Sequence record: NC_106597.1
Direction: 5' to 3' (one strand)
Origin: Escherichia phage BB1
DNA length: 64,000 nucleotides
This document shows positions 12,779 to 62,835 of this stretch, piece after piece. Made by a program: the position numbers and the translations under genes. Positions within the stretch are counted from its first letter, which is position 1; the number at the start of each line of letters is the position of its first letter. The notes under the pieces were generated by a model. It saw only the letters and a list, made by a program, of their open reading frames with translations. It ran no database searches and had not been told where the DNA came from.

Positions 12779-12804
12779 GAGGGGCTTCGGCCCCTTTCTT
12801 TTTA
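12779..12804 (+). terminator. rho-independent terminator
   Basis: GGGGC-TTCG-GCCCC followed by TTTCTTTTT. Confidence 0.75.
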
Positions 12805-17681: not shown

Positions 17682-20600
17682 TTATCTATTCGCTAGTAGA
17701 GAGTTAACTACTATGGTTAGATCTGCAATTTGCTTTTTAAGATCAGATACTTCTGATTCTAGAGCTGTGATCCTGCTATCAGATTCTCTGCTTACCTGTA
17801 CTAACAACCCGGTAATGGCCCCATAATCTACCGAATAGAATCGTTCCTCTCCAACGAGAGGCTCACCGTTTAGGGTGGCACCTGCGAGATCTGTATATTT
17901 TGTAAATCCACTTACAGCCTCCGGTAGCGCTTCCATCACTTCCTGGGCTATAACTCCCGCGTACGGCATACCGTTTTCTTTAAGGGTATATGTATATCCT
18001 TTCATTTTACGGAGAGATTCTGTAGCATTGGGTATCTCTACTATGTTATCTTTTAGATCCCTATCAGAAGCTTGGTTAAATGCGATTGCTTGAGCAGCCC
18101 CATTTACTTGGAGAACACGAGATCCATCAGTATTTTGTTGCGCATAAAATAAGTATCCATCAGTTAATTTACACTCAATAACAGAAGGTCTTCCAGTAGT
18201 ATTACCCCATAATTGAAGTATAGCATCTTTAGCTGCATTTGATGTATTTTCAATTCTAAACTGTCGATTATTTGAACGACGTACAACTATAGCAGTACTA
18301 TCTGCAAAAACTCCACCACCATAATTAGGGGTCCTTATTGAAGTATTACCATCCTCCCCTAAACTTAATGAACTGCCCATCATCTCATTAGCTATAACAA
18401 CAGATTTTCCAGCTCCGGTTTTACCAAAATACCACATTCTAGTATTATTAGCTGTTCTACCTGCTAAATAACCACTTTCAGAAGTATCATCAACACTAGA
18501 TTTTAGGGTTAATGCCTCTCCATTTTTATTTATAAAAAGAGGGACTTTAAAATCAGCATATTGATCCGTAATTATACGATTCCATGCACCTATAGTGCCA
18601 GATTCAATACTTCTCAGATAATATTTATTACCCCTACCGGCTAGTTGAGTAGCATAGTTACCACTAAAACCTATATGTACCCCACCATATACAACATTGT
18701 TTTCAGGACTATTAACTTGACCAGCAATACCATAAAACTTATTGATAGTGTTATGTTGTGTATTCCAGTCTACACCAGTAGAAGATAACATACCTGAAGG
18801 AGCTGAGAAGGTCCCATCCTTATTAAAATTAAAGAATTTATGACTAGCAGAACTAGTCATATCCCTAACAATAATCTGTCCAGCTTCTTCTGTTGCCCTA
18901 AACTCACTTTGTCCTAATATGGTATCAGCACTATTTACTAACTGAGATGTGTATGTATTTTTTGTTACAGCATCGCCTCTAGCAGAAAAACTATTAGCAC
19001 CAACAACACTACCATTAAAAGTAAAAGAAGGTGCAGTAGCAGAAAAGGCGTTACCAGAGTTAAGATTATTAGTTAAAGCAAAATTAGGAGATAATCCCTG
19101 ACGGAAAGGATGATTAGAGTAAAAGCCAGAACCGCCACCAGTAAAGTTCAAGAGGTTGCTAACATTACCCTCAGCATTTCCATCACCCGCATCTGTTACT
19201 CCAAATTTAAATTTAACCCCGTTAGTTCCTAATACATAGTCTTCCGTTGGAACATTTATAACAACCTTTGGGTCTGTCATAATGTTCACAGGAAATGCTT
19301 TATAGTGCACATAAACTGCTATGTGTTGAGCATAGTCCTTGTTACTTCCTTTTATGCATAGAATACCCAACTCATTGGGGTCATACGTTGTGAATACTCC
19401 ATATGCTATACTAGGGCTATCGCTCCAGCCACCACAAGTTACGTAGCCAGAAAAAACATTATTATTCATCTCATGGCCGGCCGATCTACCAGGAGTACGA
19501 ATAGATATAGGTACTGGCATAACCCCATTACCATTAACACCTCCAGTATAAAATATAACTGGATAGTATTTCCCATCAACAGCACCTGAAGGCGCATTAA
19601 TAGTTTGGTAAGTACCTATAAATCCTGTAGTAGGTATACCTAAATTTTGTTGAGTTACAGTAAGATTCCTAACAGCTATAGTATCCGTATTAATCTCATT
19701 TGGTACGAATAGTTGACCATTATGTTTAAAATGGAATGTTTTATAAGATGGGCCAGTATCTTCTCCCATAATCTGCAGAGTTGCAGCAGCAGTACCATCA
19801 GAAAGTTTTTCAGGGTATAAGCGCATACGCGCTCTTTGAGTACCATTCACAGCTCTTAAGTAACTATTAATAATACCTCCAGCAGCTGCCGTACTATCAC
19901 TATATCCAGTTAATGATAGACCAGCAAATAATGGTGCATGCTGGGAACCTAGCTCAATAAGCTGTCTACAGTAGCTAGGATCGTAACTATTAAGGATAGA
20001 TCCCCAGGCAGACCATGTTGAGGTACCTGGGTTATAACTACGTTCGTATATCCTATTAGTACTAAAGGTAATGTATATCTGACAACATCCAGCAACCCCA
20101 TTAGCACTATTTTGTAGTACCATTAAGTTTCCCGCTTCTTGAATAGGATAATTACGGGCTATAGTTGCATTAGCAGATAGATTCTGGTAATAGAAACCTG
20201 CAGACTCACCCGTAAGATCATTCAAGTTCTGATCTGTTAAGGTAGAAAATCTACGATACATTACTTCCAGATTTCTACGTGCGTCAGAAGTATTAAGAGC
20301 ACCAGTGCCGCCCTGAGCTATTGCGAGAGGTTGCCACCTACTAGTTGTAGGATTAAATGCTCCCCACTGACCACCAGCATCAACCTGTAAGTAACAGCCA
20401 TCCGACTGAATATCTGTTGAACAAACGATGGTTCTTGTATCACTGGAACGTTGGAAGCGGTTTAGCTGTAGATTAGTTCTCGCTTCAGCAGCTGATCTAC
20501 CTCCGGTACCACCCTGTCCTACTGCAAGAGGTATGTATGTCCTATTCTCTATATCATAAGCTCCCCAGAGTTTATTGGAAGTAATAATTATTTTTGCACC

Positions 20601-21584
20601 TTCATTAGGGTTTAATAGTTGAGTTTCAGAATTTAGTTGGACGAGCTTATCAACCTCATTCTTACGTGCATGACGTGTCCACTGCGGGCCAGTAGATGTA
20701 CTCCAACGATAGGTGTATAATGAGCGAGACGCCCATCCTTGGAAAACACCAGTGTACGCTGGACTACCATCCACTTGACTAATAAACCCTGTAAGACTAC
20801 TCTCACCAGAGGCTATTGATGGGAAGCCTACTGCATTACTCATGATACGCATAAAGCCAATATACGCAGAAGGATTACCAGAAATATCAGGACAATCACG
20901 AGGGGCATTACCTAAACCTATAGAGGCTTTCATGCCGGAAGCTACATTTTCAGCTTTAGTAGCTGAAGCAGCCGCATTAGTTTCCGAAGTTTTAGCATTA
21001 GTTTCTGATACTTTAGCAGCATTAGCACTGTTAGCAGCAGCAGTTTTACTACTATTAGCGTTAGTTTCAGAAGTTTTAGCGGCAGAAGCAGATGCAGCAG
21101 CATTAGTTTCTGAGGTTTTTGCTGCGGAAGCAGATGCAGCAGCAGCAGTTTTGCTACTATTAGCATTGGTCTCAGAAGTTTTAGCCGCTGTTTCACTAGC
21201 TTTTGCATTGGTTTCTGAAGTTTTTGCAGCCGTCTCACTAGCTTTTGCGTTAGTCTCAGAAGTCTTAGCAGCTTTAGCGCTATTAGCAGAAGTAGTAGCA
21301 GAAGAGGCAGACTGAGTTGCAGATTGCTGGGAAGATGCTGCGGAAATTTCTGCTTCATTCTCAGAGTCTTTAGCGTTTAGCTCTGACTGTTTAGCATTAA
21401 TCTCTGATTGTTTAGCTGCTGCAGCAGAAGCTTTAGAGGATTCTATAGCAGTAGTTAGTTCTCCTGCCGTAATAGAGCTAATGGAATTAGAAAGCACAAC
21501 TGTATACTTAGGATACTTACTTGCAGTTATGCTATTCTGGTCCATAATGACCATTTGCTGTAAAATTATTTTAGTTATAGCCAT
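17682..21584 (-). CDS. L-shaped tail fibre protein (pb1-like) with C-terminal intramolecular chaperone domain
   Basis: 1300 aa; N-terminal tandem fibre repeats (AAKTSETNAKASETAAKTSETNA...); C-terminal S74-type chaperone signature (EIPNATESLRKMKGYTYTLKENG...SVDYGAITGLLVQV). Confidence 0.8.
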   Translation of the reverse strand: MAITKIILQQMVIMDQNSITASKYPKYTVVLSNSISSITAGELTTAIESSKASAAAAKQSEINAKQSELNAKDSENEAEISAASSQQSATQSASSATTSANSAKAAKTSETNAKASETAAKTSETNAKASETAAKTSETNANSSKTAAAASASAAKTSETNAAASASAAKTSETNANSSKTAAANSANAAKVSETNAKTSETNAAASATKAENVASGMKASIGLGNAPRDCPDISGNPSAYIGFMRIMSNAVGFPSIASGESSLTGFISQVDGSPAYTGVFQGWASRSLYTYRWSTSTGPQWTRHARKNEVDKLVQLNSETQLLNPNEGAKIIITSNKLWGAYDIENRTYIPLAVGQGGTGGRSAAEARTNLQLNRFQRSSDTRTIVCSTDIQSDGCYLQVDAGGQWGAFNPTTSRWQPLAIAQGGTGALNTSDARRNLEVMYRRFSTLTDQNLNDLTGESAGFYYQNLSANATIARNYPIQEAGNLMVLQNSANGVAGCCQIYITFSTNRIYERSYNPGTSTWSAWGSILNSYDPSYCRQLIELGSQHAPLFAGLSLTGYSDSTAAAGGIINSYLRAVNGTQRARMRLYPEKLSDGTAAATLQIMGEDTGPSYKTFHFKHNGQLFVPNEINTDTIAVRNLTVTQQNLGIPTTGFIGTYQTINAPSGAVDGKYYPVIFYTGGVNGNGVMPVPISIRTPGRSAGHEMNNNVFSGYVTCGGWSDSPSIAYGVFTTYDPNELGILCIKGSNKDYAQHIAVYVHYKAFPVNIMTDPKVVINVPTEDYVLGTNGVKFKFGVTDAGDGNAEGNVSNLLNFTGGGSGFYSNHPFRQGLSPNFALTNNLNSGNAFSATAPSFTFNGSVVGANSFSARGDAVTKNTYTSQLVNSADTILGQSEFRATEEAGQIIVRDMTSSASHKFFNFNKDGTFSAPSGMLSSTGVDWNTQHNTINKFYGIAGQVNSPENNVVYGGVHIGFSGNYATQLAGRGNKYYLRSIESGTIGAWNRIITDQYADFKVPLFINKNGEALTLKSSVDDTSESGYLAGRTANNTRMWYFGKTGAGKSVVIANEMMGSSLSLGEDGNTSIRTPNYGGGVFADSTAIVVRRSNNRQFRIENTSNAAKDAILQLWGNTTGRPSVIECKLTDGYLFYAQQNTDGSRVLQVNGAAQAIAFNQASDRDLKDNIVEIPNATESLRKMKGYTYTLKENGMPYAGVIAQEVMEALPEAVSGFTKYTDLAGATLNGEPLVGEERFYSVDYGAITGLLVQVSRESDSRITALESEVSDLKKQIADLTIVVNSLLANR

Positions 21585-42555: not shown

Positions 42556-44328
42556 TTAGGTAAGGCGTTGAACTGTTACTCGTAGTCTCGGTAAGAAAAC
42601 TGCAGAACCTAAACTAACGTGTAGTATAACACCTAATTCTGCATTACCATTACCAAGATTTTTTATTGTATATATAAAACTGTTTCTACTAAAAGCTCCG
42701 CTATCTGGAGTATATTTATAAGCAGAAGTAGTATGGAAAGGCACTAATTTTCCAGGAGGAAGAACTAAAATTTGGTGAAATATAGCATCCCCTCCCGTAT
42801 AACTTTGTGATTTTCTTCCTTGCACCTGAAAAACACTACCATTCCACGTATTTACTGGTAACCCAGCAACATTAAGGTTACCCGATAATATTTCACTAGT
42901 TAGTATAACAGTAGAGTTATTATTTGGTAGGCCTAGTCCAACTGTTGCTAGTGATTTATAAACATTACCAGTGCCCGGATAGGTCGGAGTAATATCATTA
43001 CCAATATAGGCACTAGCCACATTACCGGATAATAGGCGTAAAGGTATTGATGAAGGTCCCCAGACAACACCATTCTCATTACCAATAGTATTATTATTAG
43101 AGTTTACATACCAGGTCTTACTAGCAGAGAACTTATAAATACTAAGTTGTGCTCTTGTACCACTATAGTTGACTGGTGCCCATATAGATCCTTTGTTAGA
43201 GCATACAAATTCACATCTTCCAGTAGTATCCCCAAACACCCCACCATGCGCAGCGTTTACTCCAATATACTCCATATCAGCACGAGAACTTAGATTCCCT
43301 AGAGCATTCTGATTAATAAACTTCCAACCAGTAGTAGATAACTTAACTCCCTTAATAGTAAAGTTGGACGGAGAAATTATTATGTCAGAACCTGTAAAGG
43401 GATTGCTAGAAACAGACATACTACCATTAGAATACCTTAGGTTCAGCACATACCATATAACTTTTGTAGGGGTTACTCCATAACCATCTTGAACTATTTT
43501 TGTATTAGCTGATTGACTTACTAACTTAGTAGTAGAACCTCTACAAACATATCTATACCCACCATCACTAAAGTGCTGTACTATATTGCTAGGGATTGTT
43601 TGTTTGTATCCAGCATACCCCCTAATATTAGAATTACATACATAAAACCAGTTGTGCCCACGTTTACCAGCCCCCATTGGAGCCATCCAGTTAGGATCCC
43701 AATAGTACGTATCACCTGAAGATATAGGAACAGAAGTACTTCCTATAGGATACCCTAGTTGTTTGAAAGTTTCAGCTACAGTAGCACCTACAGGTGCACC
43801 ACCACCTGGTCTTACAACACCATGATAAGTACTATGTAGTACAGTACCGCCAGTACCACTTCTAGCTATAGATTCTTCATGCCCTAGAGAACTATTATAG
43901 GAATAAGTACCTGAAGCTAGACTATTACCAAAAGCAAATCCAGCAGTTTGACTTAAGCTAGCAAATGATCTAAAAGGATCGGCCTGAGGATCGGCCTGAG
44001 TAGAAGAAAGAAACTGCCCAACTTGAGATTGAGTACCATTCAAAAAACCACGATGGGTACCATTAACTTCTATAGCTGTTAGTATAACTCTACCAGGATC
44101 ATTACTCTTTAAGTTAGCTATTGCAGAAGGCATCTGGCATACATAGAAACCATTCCCAGCACTACTTAATGCGCTCTCATAAGTGCTTTCTACTAATACG
44201 AAGGGCATATCAGAATGAAAAATAGTATTAGTACTAGGGTTTTTATGAGCATTAATATCTCCACCACTAGCAGTATTTAGTGATAATACAGTTTTACCAT
44301 CACTATATTTTCCAGCGAAAAAACCCAT
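42556..44328 (-). CDS. receptor-binding protein (pb5-like); receptor not determinable from sequence
   Basis: 590-aa ORF at the end of the late operon, divergent from an llp-like lipoprotein gene. Confidence 0.55.
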
Positions 44329-44353
44329 ATAATCTCCTATTATAAAAATGTAT

Positions 44354-44382
44354 TTGCTTTCATCCCTCTATTTTGCTATAAT
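44354..44382 (+). promoter_or_regulatory. sigma70-type promoter driving llp
   Basis: -35 TTGCTT 44354-44359, 17-bp spacer, -10 TATAAT 44377-44382, then AGATTCATAAATT. Confidence 0.6.
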
Positions 44383-44413
44383 AGATTCATAAATTAGAAA
44401 TGGAGAGATAAAT

Positions 44414-44680
44414 ATGAAAAAGTTTGTGATTGCACTAGTTGCCGCAGTTATGTTATCTGGTTGTGCACCTGCTCCCAAACCATTTTGTACAGGATTTGTA
44501 AAATCTTTTGGTGGTGTGGGAGAAGAACATTACGGTCTCAAGGTTCAAAAAGTTCGTATTAAGGGAGATCGCTTTCCAGTAGTACAGCTCCGTACTAAGT
44601 TTGGATGGTGGGATCTCAGTCAGTTTGACCTTAAATATGGTGATTGTAAATTTAAACTAGAACAATCTAATTACCTGTAA
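44414..44680 (+). CDS. llp: lipoprotein, Llp-like (receptor-blocking superinfection exclusion)
   Basis: Signal peptide with lipobox LSGC; divergent from receptor-binding gene; driven by a T5-type consensus promoter. Confidence 0.7.
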   Translation: MKKFVIALVAAVMLSGCAPAPKPFCTGFVKSFGGVGEEHYGLKVQKVRIKGDRFPVVQLRTKFGWWDLSQFDLKYGDCKFKLEQSNYL

Positions 44681-50635: not shown

Positions 50636-51082
50636 ATCGTCGATTCCTTATAATGAATAAGTTTACCGCCGATAGGCTTTAAGATGTACCCAATTTTTAA
50701 AGAGCGTGGCGGTAAACTTCCCGCCGTGTAGTTCGTCATTGCCGCCCTACGAAATAAATAATAGGGGATTCCCGAAAATGGCGCAACCTTATTTTTGTAA
50801 AGAAACGTAAAGACACGATCCACCGGACGGCGTGCGGCGACGGCCTAAAATTAAAAGAAACGGGCGCGCGAATACCACAAAACATAGCAAATAGGCAAGT
50901 AATTTTTTCATTTATATTTACTTTGCCCTACTTGACAAAACCTAAAAAGCTCGTGACAGCGATAAACGGCTTATCCCTTTATGATGAGATGGCTAAAAAC
51001 TTCATCGCGTTCTAGGGCGTTTTAGGCGCATTCTAGCCTTGTTGATAACTTATCCCCAGAAGCAAAAATGAAATTTTCCTAG

Positions 51083-51115: not shown

Positions 51116-51398
51116 CTACTTATTTTATAAAATAAATTAATTGACTTTTATCTGTTAGTATGCATCGGAAAGATAGCAGACTAATAATTGCTAGGATGAT
51201 AATCATGCTGGTGGATTGTAACGGCTTAAATTATTAGCAGACTATTAATCACGGAAAATCTCATTAGCCAACTAACTATTTCATGATATATAATATACTT
51301 ATAAATTAATGAGAAATAATAATTATAATAAATAATAACTACAGTAAATAATAACTATAAGAAACTATCGGCCTAAGTGAGAACCACTATCATTTAAG

Positions 51399-55287: not shown

Positions 55288-55886
55288 GTGCAAATCCGAC
55301 ATTGCTCCATGGGTGTTACGTGCGGGCGTGTATGTGCGAATCCGACAATTTTTGGTAGTGTGCAAATCCGACCCGAAAAATTTTTATAGTGTGCAAATCC
55401 GACAATGAATTTTCCTAAAAACTCCAGCAATCACGAACTGCGTTCGAATCCTGTGGGGTATGTGCAAATCCGACATGGTTTTTCTAGGATTAAGATGTGC
55501 GAATCCGACAAGATTTTTGTGACTTCGATTGGAGGGTGTGTGATTGTGTGAGTTTGGGGAGAAGTTGAAAGAGTGAGAGAAATTTGGGGGAACTGCGGGA
55601 GGGGTGCATGTTTGGTGCGGAGCACCTGATTTGCGGGGATTTTGTGGAAGAGTTGAGAAGATTTGGGTTAATTTGAGATAAGTGCAGATAAAGTAAAATT
55701 TTATTAGCTAAATGGGGCAAAATAGCTTGACAAGTGAAAATTTCTGTGGCTCCAAAAACTCAGGCAATCATGGGCCTTCGGCCCGAAATAATGCTGCCGT
55801 TTTCAGGAGATTATATGTTCCTAAAAACTTAGGCAATTGTGCAAATCCGACCAGTTTTTAAACTCTTGTCAGTGTGCAAATCCGAC
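55288..55886. repeat. eight direct copies of 13-mer GTGC(A/G)AATCCGAC, irregular spacing
   Basis: Copies start near 55288, 55334, 55360, 55391, 55462, 55497, 55839, 55874. Confidence 0.7.
55500..55700. other. C-depleted G/T/A-rich tract (~200 bp) with strong strand asymmetry
   Basis: Almost no C on + strand; GGGG/GTGTG runs. Confidence 0.5.
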
Positions 55887-55926
55887 AGTAATTTCTAGAA
55901 ATGTGTTTTGGAAAAATGTCTTCTAG

Positions 55927-55968
55927 AAATAACCGCCCTCCCAATAACCGCCCTGTATTAACCGCCTA
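55927..55968. repeat. three closely spaced direct repeats (A/T)TAACCGCC(C)T, iteron-like
   Basis: Copies near 55929, 55945, 55959. Confidence 0.5.
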
Positions 55969-56385
55969 TTGCTGGAGTTTCTAGGAATATGAAAACCGCC
56001 TAAGTTGACTAGAGTTTTCCTAGAAACTTAGGAGTCTAGAAGAAAGTGTTGTGCCATCCTAGCAGATGAGCGGCAACAGGTGTATCATCTTGAACACAAA
56101 TATTGCCTTTAAATATTATAAGGTAAATAAAAGTTAATATACCCCCATTTCATGAGAGTTAGTCCCTCTAGGCGCGTGCGATTTGATACATCCTCCTGAG
56201 TCTCGGGGAGGAAGAACAATTGACGAGAACCTGCGAACAGAACCGTCATCAAGTGTTTTCCTACGAGGAATGATGTAAATCTACGGCCTAGAGGTAAAAA
56301 CAAGTTGATGTTTTTAATCTATGAGATTATTATAACACATTATTCTCACGAATGTCAAGCAAATTTCGTTACTTTTAAATTTTCG

Positions 56386-60325: not shown

Positions 60326-60560
60326 CTTTAAGAATATCCTCTACCATATCACAAGACTGTTGCAATTCATCAGCAATACGTTTAATATCGGTTTTTGTTA
60401 TTTTACCGATTAACATCACCAGTAACATAGAAAGTATAATAAGCGGGACTGGAATAACAAACAGTGCTACCTTAACTATATTCTTTGGTGCCCATGTATG
60501 GTACTTAGTAACCAGTACACCAACCACAATCAAATAAAACGCTAGAATAAACATCATCAT
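60315..60560 (-). CDS. small membrane protein
   Basis: Two hydrophobic helices. Confidence 0.4.
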   Translation of the reverse strand: MMMFILAFYLIVVGVLVTKYHTWAPKNIVKVALFVIPVPLIILSMLLVMLIGKITKTDIKRIADELQQSCDMVEDILKDEA

Positions 60561-60838
60561 TTTTTAATCTCCGTGATTATCTGTGTACGCATTACTTTAG
60601 CAGGTAATTTATTATTCCCAACTATTGCTTCTATATTATTTAATTTTTCCTTAAGAATATCCGAGCGTCTTTGTGCTAATTCAATGTCCTGCTCTTGCTC
60701 TAGCAAACGGTGGTGTAGTCCATCATTAGTAATAAGCATATTTTCCATGCTTTTTCGTGCATTCACAATCCCAATAACTCCACCAATCGCTACTAGTGTC
60801 ATAAGCACTAGCAATCCAATGAGAATTTCTGTAATCAT
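60557..60838 (-). CDS. small type-II-like membrane protein with coiled-coil
   Basis: N-terminal TM helix, coiled-coil tail; ATGA overlap with upstream frame. Confidence 0.4.
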   Translation of the reverse strand: MITEILIGLLVLMTLVAIGGVIGIVNARKSMENMLITNDGLHHRLLEQEQDIELAQRRSDILKEKLNNIEAIVGNNKLPAKVMRTQIITEIKK

Positions 60839-61372
60839 TTATTTAAGTCCTCTAAAGTAGGTAAGGGTTTTGTATGATCAAAAGTTTCTATAACAGCATT
60901 AGGCCCATGTAGTTCTAAACGTAGTTCATTAGCTCTTTGAACTGCCAACTCTAAATCTAGATACCTAAAGTAGCCTCCGTGTACTGTAATGCTTTCGGCG
61001 CTTCTGGCCTGGACTCTCCATTGTTGTCGATCTTTTTTTCCAGGTAACTCCTAAGTACCCCGAATTAGATTGAGCGATTTTGCTACGATTATTCTCTTGG
61101 GACGTACAATCTTTTAAATTACACCATCTATTATCTTTTCTTATATTATTTAAGTGGTGTACTAGATTTGGAATATACCCCTCCATGTACAAAAAGGCTA
61201 ATCTATGGGCTGCATATCTTTTTCTATTTATCCCAATAAATATATAACCATCCTTATCAGGACTACCAGCAATACTACCTGCTTTACCTCGTCCTCTACT
61301 GACTTTCCTTATAAACTCGCCCGTTTCCGGGCGGTATTCAAATAACTCTTTTAATCTTTCTTGTGTTAGCAT
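60835..61372 (-). pseudogene. HNH-AP2 homing-type endonuclease interrupted by a frameshift at an A7 homopolymer
   Basis: HNH motif (HHLNNIRKDNRWCNLKDCTSQENN) in track ORF 60965..61372; a 1-nt shift at the A7 run (+ strand T7, about 61033-61039) restores an AP2-like domain (GVTWKKDRQQWRVQARSAESITVHGGYFRYLDLELAVQRANELRLELHG) ending in an ATGA overlap at 60835. Confidence 0.5.
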
Positions 61373-61662
61373 TTTTTCTTTAATTGCTTGACTTCACGCT
61401 CAAAGCTAGCTGCTCGGCGTTCTGCCACTGCTTGATGCTCCTTAGCAAAGCGTGCCTCTTGTTTTGCTAAGTTAAAGGCCATAGCGTTCTTGTTAAGAGA
61501 ATCATACATCTTCTTCATCGCCGGAATAGACATTTTCATCAGTTGCCCCTCAAATCCTTGCATGTCGAGGAGAATTGCTAATACATTGGCCATTTCAGTC
61601 TTGGTAAGGTTAGAGGCGTCGAAGTCTTTAGTCATGTTTTCCATTAGAATTTCCTCTCTCAT
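61366..61662 (-). CDS. hypothetical protein
   Basis: 98-aa ORF with RBS. Confidence 0.45.
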   Translation of the reverse strand: MREEILMENMTKDFDASNLTKTEMANVLAILLDMQGFEGQLMKMSIPAMKKMYDSLNKNAMAFNLAKQEARFAKEHQAVAERRAASFEREVKQLKKKC

Positions 61663-61722
61663 TAATTTATGAACTTATTATACAGAATTTTAAGGCTTAA
61701 AGCAACTGAATTTTTTAATTAC

Positions 61723-62154
61723 TTACCAATCGTTAACAACGCCGGAGAACTCAGAAGCAAAAACTTTTTCAAATTTCTCTGCAATTTCAGGATGATCTTT
61801 GCAGATCAGCTCAATACAGGCTTCTGGAGTCATTCCTTCATCTTCAGGATCCCCATAGTATTTATCCCAAAGATCATCAGGAATGATATGCTCCGCCAAA
61901 TCTTGGAAAGAGATTAACTGATAACGTTCTGCTTCCTCGGGGATAAGGATTTCACAAAGATCTTTATCTATATCACTACGGTAATCAGCAATTAGCAGGG
62001 CATTGCAAGCATGACACTCCCAAACCATCAAGCGTTCAGAAATAGGATTAGACTTATCCTGTACGTAAGACTGAAACAGGGTTCGGAAAGTTGCCTTAAC
62101 TTGTTCAAACTTATCTGCTGCTGCGAAAACTAGAGCTTTATCAACTTTGTTCAT
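61723..62154 (-). CDS. hypothetical acidic protein
   Basis: 143-aa ORF. Confidence 0.45.
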   Translation of the reverse strand: MNKVDKALVFAAADKFEQVKATFRTLFQSYVQDKSNPISERLMVWECHACNALLIADYRSDIDKDLCEILIPEEAERYQLISFQDLAEHIIPDDLWDKYYGDPEDEGMTPEACIELICKDHPEIAEKFEKVFASEFSGVVNDW

Positions 62155-62313
62155 TTTGTTTCCTTCTCATCAATTTATAAAGTAATTATACAGAAACTTA
62201 AGCATTTTAGCAAATAAAACTTTTAATTAAAATGCCTAGTCCTGTACCAATAGCAATACAAATGATTATAAGTATTGCTACTACTTGTATGATTCGTTTA
62301 ATAATACCCATGA

Positions 62314-62835
62314 TTAGACATTTAACATCCAACTAGTTTTATCATGAGAGGTATATTTACCACTCATTATGTCTTCCAGCCGTACTGGTGATTTTGCATA
62401 CTCAACGCAAACGTTAATATAACGAGGGTCTCCCATTAACTCAAAGTGAGTATGCCCGTGTAAGTTCTTCTTGCCCCTTAACTCTTCTGGATGTACTGGA
62501 GCATGGGAAAGCCAAAAGTTTTTATACTTAACTAGGGATTGTACATTATCTACTACTCCTACTAAGTCTTTGAAAGATAATCCTTCTCGCTCTAAGTCGT
62601 GGTTCCCCAAAACTAATGTAGTTCTAACATTGCTAAAGAGTTTTTCGAACTTCTCCAAACCATTTCTAGATACAAATGCATCTCCTAAAATATAAAATAC
62701 TGTACGCTTATCTTTCATGGATGTAATAGTATCCATAATAAATTCATCATGCTCTTCCATAGTAGAGAAGATTGGTCTGAATTTAGTAATATTTGCATGT
62801 CCTAAGTGGAGATCACTCCAAAAGCAAACTTTCAT
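62314..62835 (-). CDS. metallophosphoesterase (small calcineurin-like phosphoesterase)
   Basis: Motifs DLHLGH, GDAFVSRNG, GNHD, GHTH. Confidence 0.6.
   Translation of the reverse strand: MKVCFWSDLHLGHANITKFRPIFSTMEEHDEFIMDTITSMKDKRTVFYILGDAFVSRNGLEKFEKLFSNVRTTLVLGNHDLEREGLSFKDLVGVVDNVQSLVKYKNFWLSHAPVHPEELRGKKNLHGHTHFELMGDPRYINVCVEYAKSPVRLEDIMSGKYTSHDKTSWMLNV

Follow-up and report, generated by a model that had tools for sequence, protein, structure and literature searches.

The 64,000-nt stretch of DNA analyzed here, referred to below as the window, is a segment of a Tequintavirus (Demerecviridae) genome. Positions 60400-61800 match 389 phage records, the best of which is Escherichia phage slur09 at 99.4%, and over the whole window slur09 aligns at 86-99% identity. 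On the minus strand at 60835..61372 lies the cassette of a homing endonuclease gene (HEG), 538 nt long in the window, one more than the 537 nt (178 codons and a stop) of intact orthologues, and it is bordered by two genes on the same strand. Upstream, at 61366..61662, is the orthologue of T5p031 ("protein 2C"), the final codons of which overlap the HEG start; the ATGCTAA at the HEG 5' end is common to the HEG start and the upstream gene stop. Downstream, at 60557..60838, is the orthologue of T5p029, encoding a 93-aa membrane protein, and here the native HEG stop (TGA, 60837-60835) and the ATG of the downstream gene (60838-60836) overlap as ATGA, just as the preliminary description of this DNA had read them. 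No paralogue of the HEG was detected by tblastn within the 64-kb window.

The HEG is split between two reading frames. Frame 0 runs on the minus strand from the ATG at 61372 to a TAG at 60965 (60965..61372) and encodes 135 aa, consisting of native residues 1-113 and 22 out-of-frame residues (RSTTMESPGQKRRKHYSTRRLL). This ORF is identical to QNL29634.1, annotated as "putative HNH endonuclease" in Escherichia phage BB1, a match that makes BB1 the probable source of the window. The frameshift site is an A7 run at 61033..61039 on the minus strand (T7 on the plus strand), within TTAGGAGTTACCTGGAAAAAAAGATCGACAA, where TGG AAA AAA A is followed by GAT. It is the sole stretch of seven identical bases in the gene and is one A longer than the A6 of the orthologues. 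At the junction the frame-0 product reads ...WKKRSTTMESPGQK..., compared with ...GVTWKKDR... in the restored product. Native codons 114-178, which specify AP2-like strands 2-3, a helix, and the C-terminal tail, occupy 60838..61032 of the minus strand in the +1 frame; read onward from the A7 run, this frame gives DRQQWRVQARSAESITVHGGYFRYLDLELAVQRANELRLELHGPNAVIETFDHTKPLPTLEDLNK, 65 codons that close at the TGA at 60837-60835. When the repaired 178-aa protein was compared with the window by tblastn, it matched at 100% identity in two HSPs, one in frame -1 and one in frame -2, which meet inside the run. The ORF map, tblastn, and the alignment of orthologues described below therefore agree on an HNH-AP2 gene split across 60835-61372 with its break at 61033-61039, as first proposed. 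The downstream ATG is normally translationally coupled to the HEG through the ATGA overlap. Because the stop at 60965 is premature, 126 bases (60839-60964) are left untranslated ahead of that ATG. Expression of the AP2 fragment by itself was considered as a candidate and rejected, because the +1 frame has no usable start codon before the TTG at 60948, from which only 37 aa could be made.

The HNH_3 catalytic domain (Pfam PF13392) spans residues 53-96, encoded at 61085..61216 on the minus strand, and is recognized with E values of 3.6e-11 to 5.7e-11 and 42-43 bits, against a Pfam cut-off of 24.8 bits. The PHROG 99 "HNH endonuclease" profile matches residues 1-168 of the repaired protein (E=2e-58). 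H56, H73, N81, and N94, invariant across 65 homologues, are all present, unchanged, and upstream of the break, which bears out the earlier claim that the HNH catalytic motif is intact. The C-terminal part is more difficult to assign by its own sequence: PF00847 (AP2) is found in it only below threshold (E=0.038, 14.7 bits, against a Pfam cut-off of 33.3 bits), although it is matched at E<=0.001 in 20 of 66 homologues, the best at 6e-12. A sequence search of the PDB returned no meaningful match and fold comparison was therefore needed, for which an AlphaFold2 model was made of the intact orthologue P0001 (99% identical). In the model (pLDDT 93.5), strands at residues 109-112, 117-123, and 129-135 are followed by a helix at 137-158, and the top PDB matches to it are AP2 domains: WRINKLED1 (7wq5), AtERF1 (1gcc; TM 0.75, prob 1.00), and TEM1 (7et5). 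The homologue matches and the predicted fold support the view that the C-terminal part is an AP2-fold domain, and with it the suggestion that an AP2-like domain continues in another (+1) frame after the run. The frame break sits between strands 1 and 2 of this AP2-like domain.

The gene is a free-standing HNH-AP2 homing endonuclease gene of Tequintavirus phages. HNH-AP2 HEGs of phages, cyanobacteria, and ciliates likewise carry an N-terminal HNH and a C-terminal AP2-fold domain (Magnani et al. 2004, as it is cited in PMC10448857). The "IPA-HNH" HEGs of vibriophage ICP1 are also free-standing, their presence varies between close phages, and they are often broken by frameshifts; in ICP1 gp115/gp116 the division falls between HNH and AP2, as it does in the window gene (Barth et al. 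2023, PMC10448857). According to the same study, frameshifts, variable stops, and deletions are typical of phage HEGs. Unlike the ICP1 genes, which were reported to be too divergent for the profile, the window gene matches the canonical Pfam HNH_3, and by sequence it belongs to a Tequintavirus-specific clade, PHROG 99. Among the T5-like phages, the orthologues of NR01 (AKN44460.1), VEc33 (QFG06098.1), and MET_P1_179_112 (annotated "hegJ_2, putative H-N-H-endonuclease P-TflX") share the locus, the flanking genes, and the start/stop overlaps of the window gene. The difference lies in the run, which is A6 in the intact T5-like orthologues, with a product of 178 aa, and A7 in the window, with a product of 135 aa.

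How widely is the seventh A distributed? The gene was aligned with those of five relatives: NR01, VEc33, MET_P1_179_112, slur09, and ECOP18. NR01, VEc33, and MET_P1_179_112 have A6 and an unbroken 178-codon ORF. The slur09 gene also has A6 but carries a TCG>TAG nonsense mutation at codon 104, 10 codons upstream of the run, and ECOP18 has A5 at the same run and its gene is annotated as two CDSs. A 538-nt query matched 33 records at >=95% identity and a further 13 at 72-75%, and all the full-length matches have a span of 537 nt apart from that to ECOP18, at 536. With a 191-nt query centered on the run, 34 records were matched, each spanning 190 nt with the exception of ECOP18 (189), and the run is A6 in 32 of the 34, RefSeq/GenBank duplicates included. 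It is likewise A6 in five IMG/VR contigs and two metagenome contigs. A scan for the pattern GTTACCTGG-N{4,10}-GATCGACAAC over metagenome and genome collections returned 81 loci, of which two are genuine, both with A6, the others being chance matches in unrelated GC-rich DNA. The exact 135-aa product was looked up in assembled contigs, where nothing is on record. The 135-aa sequence belongs to the P0001 cluster, where its annotation is from phage BB1. A7 occurs in no independent sequence, its sole other instance being the protein record of BB1, probably derived from this very assembly. Orthologues that stop at the same point would have counted against the preliminary description, and the comparison shows that they do not.

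Apart from the extra A, the window gene differs from intact NR01 by three substitutions (99.3% identity), and its nucleotide identity to intact T5-like orthologues, such as those of NR01, VEc33, and MET_P1_179_112, is 96-99%. Between the intact copies and the repaired window gene, dN/dS is 0.04-0.21 across the whole length, which shows purifying selection on the intact copies and hence a gene preserved as a protein. What is found in the window is therefore what would be expected of a pseudogene, a lesion (+1 A) relative to A6 orthologues that are themselves under purifying selection, although the downstream +1 frame carries no secondary decay of the kind that would prove pseudogene status.

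Several other members of the family are shortened. The lesions are independent. The 103-aa product of slur09 recurs in Logan assemblies, and besides slur09 and ECOP18 the lesion-bearing proteins include the truncated alleles P0012, P0023, and P0070, together with P0129. Among the forms seen are a 109-aa stub in PMBT31, a 137-aa frameshifted form encoded by a 72%-identical allele, and one 101-aa form that has lost the AP2 domain in frame. With the exception of a 48-aa fragment in VAH1, every truncation falls at or after the HNH/AP2 junction, a clustering that may be due to a hot spot rich in A or to biased ascertainment.

The cassette behaves as a mobile insertion. A query composed of its two 500-nt flanks matches 356 T5-like records, only some of which contain the 537-nt cassette. 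The flank span is ~1537 nt with the HEG, 1006-1033 nt without insert (DT57C, SE11, AZ23), ~1147 nt in T5, and ~1170 nt in a fourth class. DT57C and SE11 have nothing but a short spacer between their T5p031 and T5p029 orthologues, and in T5 the HEG site is filled by an unrelated 54-aa ORF, T5p030. The HEG is therefore polymorphic for presence and absence at a fixed intergenic site among related genomes. SP3-type phages have an insert of ~170 nt at this same T5p031/T5p029 site, and comparison of window 60835-61378 with DT57C, T5, and SE11 marks the interval as an insertion hot spot. Where the two neighbouring genes adjoin the cassette, the upstream one at its end and the downstream one at its beginning, their codons differ from those of HEG-less alleles, differences that would fit a free-standing HEG whose own flanks differ from its target.

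The A7 run is also singular on the scale of the window, in which it is the only homopolymer of seven or more bases. Composition-matched shuffles (Markov order 0-3, 100 shuffles) give 24-29 such runs on average and at least 12 in every case, and runs of 4, 5, and 6 bases (726, 218, and 57, respectively) are at or slightly above the shuffle means. The same sharp cut-off is seen in slur09, whose 68 kb contain three 7-base runs and nothing longer. This limit is ~2 nt below the ~9 nt reported for many bacteria (PMC1088944). The near-absence of runs >=7 genome-wide is arguably more interesting than the frameshift.

The comparison with slur09 exposed other differences. Window segments 17682-21584 and 42556-44680 have little or no nucleotide match to slur09, and by reading of the sequence the former holds a putative 1300-aa L-shaped-tail-fibre-like ORF and the latter putative adjacent ORFs for a 590-aa receptor-binding-protein-like product and an 88-aa lipoprotein-like product. 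The two segments look like host-range modules swapped relative to slur09. The possibility that the unmatched regions (17.7-20.3 kb and 42.6-45.0 kb) were further HEGs was considered and rejected, since they hold putative tail-fibre and receptor-binding genes instead. Closer to the HEG, window 62309-62831 has no megablast match in slur09, where two other small genes, SLUR09_00010 and 00011, hold that position, a mosaic replacement; a 173-aa ORF at 62314-62835, putatively metallophosphoesterase-like by reading, lies here upstream of a 291-aa Ser/Thr phosphatase gene. Segments 51281-51345 and 55800-56045 are AT-rich or repeat-like intergenic DNA with many small indels relative to slur09, and may be promoters or repeats at the early/pre-early boundary.

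Is the seventh A a property of the phage or of its deposited sequence? The preliminary description had offered both a decayed homing endonuclease and a homopolymer sequencing error. We regard it as probable that this is a real and recent slippage mutation in a dispensable selfish gene, the extra A being present in the phage DNA and not just in the assembly. That the phage truly has A6 and an intact 178-aa HEG, the seventh A being a homopolymer overcall in the deposited assembly, is possible and we hold it to be somewhat unlikely. The break falls exactly inside a homopolymer, the classic site of such errors, in a gene that is otherwise wild type, being 99.3% identical to NR01 and free of further lesions in the downstream frame. 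A7 is unique among more than 40 copies, it is the sole run >=7 in 64 kb in a genome family where runs of that length are all but absent, and the A5 of ECOP18, at the same run, could be the same type of error. No paper on phage BB1 or its sequencing platform was found in the literature. Yet a random error would have had to strike the single 6-base run of the HEG among the 57 in the window, and no gene is broken at any of the remaining fifty-odd 6-base runs or at the 218 runs of 5 bases. Reciprocal ORF-level tblastn of the window and slur09 revealed no other frameshifted gene, the other split match (~50840-50911) being an ORF unannotated in slur09. Seven other isolated homopolymer-length differences from slur09, near 12798, 17643, 22013, 45768, 46581, 49360, and 54716, are all non-coding, being intergenic, at a stop codon, or within a 5' leader, although ORFs make up ~89% of the window. 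Because these indels spare coding DNA, they have the pattern of selection acting on real indels rather than that of random miscalls. The run, moreover, lies in a dispensable selfish gene in which relatives show lesions unrelated to homopolymers, such as the slur09 nonsense codon. It is the absence of any other frameshifted gene, the non-coding position of the indels, and the independent lesions in relatives that lead us to favor a real mutation.

All remaining readings are improbable even when taken jointly. The preliminary description had raised a slippage-controlled switch, and one might suppose that full-length protein is made through +1 ribosomal slippage (tRNA-Lys moving from AAA to AAA before AGA), or through RNA polymerase dropping one A, or else that the run is a hypermutable A5/A6/A7 on/off contingency tract tuning HEG activity. 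We consider this very unlikely. A +1 slip inside the run would recreate the exact wild-type WKKDRQQW, and runs of A are recognized as slippery (Baranov 2005, PMC1088944; Atkins 2016, PMC5009743). The genes with programmed frameshifting or transcriptional slippage, including prfB (+1), dnaX, the IS3/IS630 transposases, and the A9 of Thermus dnaX, likewise have a slippery homopolymer between overlapping frames of a two-domain protein, but in comparison the window run is shorter and has no +1 stimulator, and the frameshift is absent from orthologues. The AGGAG located 8-11 nt upstream of the run has a spacing unsuited to +1 stimulation; at 8-11 nt this motif is associated with -1 stimulation, and the -1 frame after the run is unproductive. 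The frame-0 codon that follows the run, AGA, is not "hungry" in this phage, being used for 26% of the Arg residues of the window's long ORFs; no tRNA genes were found in the 64-kb window. T5 is transcribed by E. coli RNA polymerase. Slippage by that enzyme reportedly becomes detectable only at >=7 T and still more A (Koscielniak 2018, PMC6260861), and bacterial selection against slippery runs typically sets in from ~9 nt (Baranov 2005, PMC1088944); the run is short relative to reported slippage lengths, and neither stimulatory elements nor a run length adequate for efficient slippage were found. The two-frame organization is not conserved across orthologues either: every one found is in frame with A6 (537 nt), save ECOP18 with A5, and a frameshift so lacking in conservation lends no support to programmed recoding or to a switch. 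Phase-variable homopolymer loci are familiar from, for example, the surface genes of Neisseria and Haemophilus. As in those loci, run length differs among isolates, from A5 in ECOP18 through A6 in most to A7 in the window, toggling the frame; unlike them, the run is only 6-7 bases long, and despite three lengths among genomes it has the in-frame A6 in 32 of 34 records. An A8 run had been thought capable of restoring the gene, which is not so: with the downstream frame at +1, A6 or A9 would restore it. It is likewise scarcely probable that the run is a tolerated hypermutable tract, in which the A7 allele leaks wild-type endonuclease by a +1 slip of tRNA-Lys or a dropped A; if this were true, leaky A7 would keep the selfish nuclease on a reversible "standby" at low expression and would not be a dead gene. 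We give equally little credence to the idea that the 135-aa HNH-only protein is itself selected, for instance as a domesticated or non-specific nickase, the loss of AP2 being adaptive. The truncated members do keep the HNH core and lose AP2 (103, 109, 135, 137, 137, and 101 aa), but the truncations arose from different molecular causes, each restricted to one genome, the A-rich junction (WKK) is a mutational hot spot, and the sample suffers from ascertainment bias, because N-terminal truncations would neither be called as genes nor retrieved. Intact copies dominate, with dN/dS of 0.04-0.21 over the whole length.

The real-mutation reading would take the following form. A genuine and very recent replication slippage would have made the extra A, a non-programmed one-base expansion from A6 to A7 at the start of the AP2-like domain. 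Translation would then end 22 codons past the run, and the resulting 135-aa protein would keep the N-terminal and HNH modules and only strand 1 of the AP2 fold. Target recognition and site-specific homing would presumably be lost, and the truncated protein is probably inactive, although with an intact HNH core it could retain some activity. If the mutation is real, both the loss of homing and the untranslated gap before the downstream ATG would be its consequences, and the element would have entered the usual cycle of HEG decay at its first stage. The weak point of this gene appears to be the homopolymer where the two domains join.

The feature is an ordinary one, a disrupted or mis-assembled copy of a known phage HEG family that is already in the public record. 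Annotation would do better to join the two ORF fragments into a single, probably disrupted HNH-AP2 HEG than to list a 135-aa "HNH endonuclease". The case has little import beyond annotation; it is a textbook instance of the HEG life cycle of invasion, fixation, and decay in Tequintavirus.
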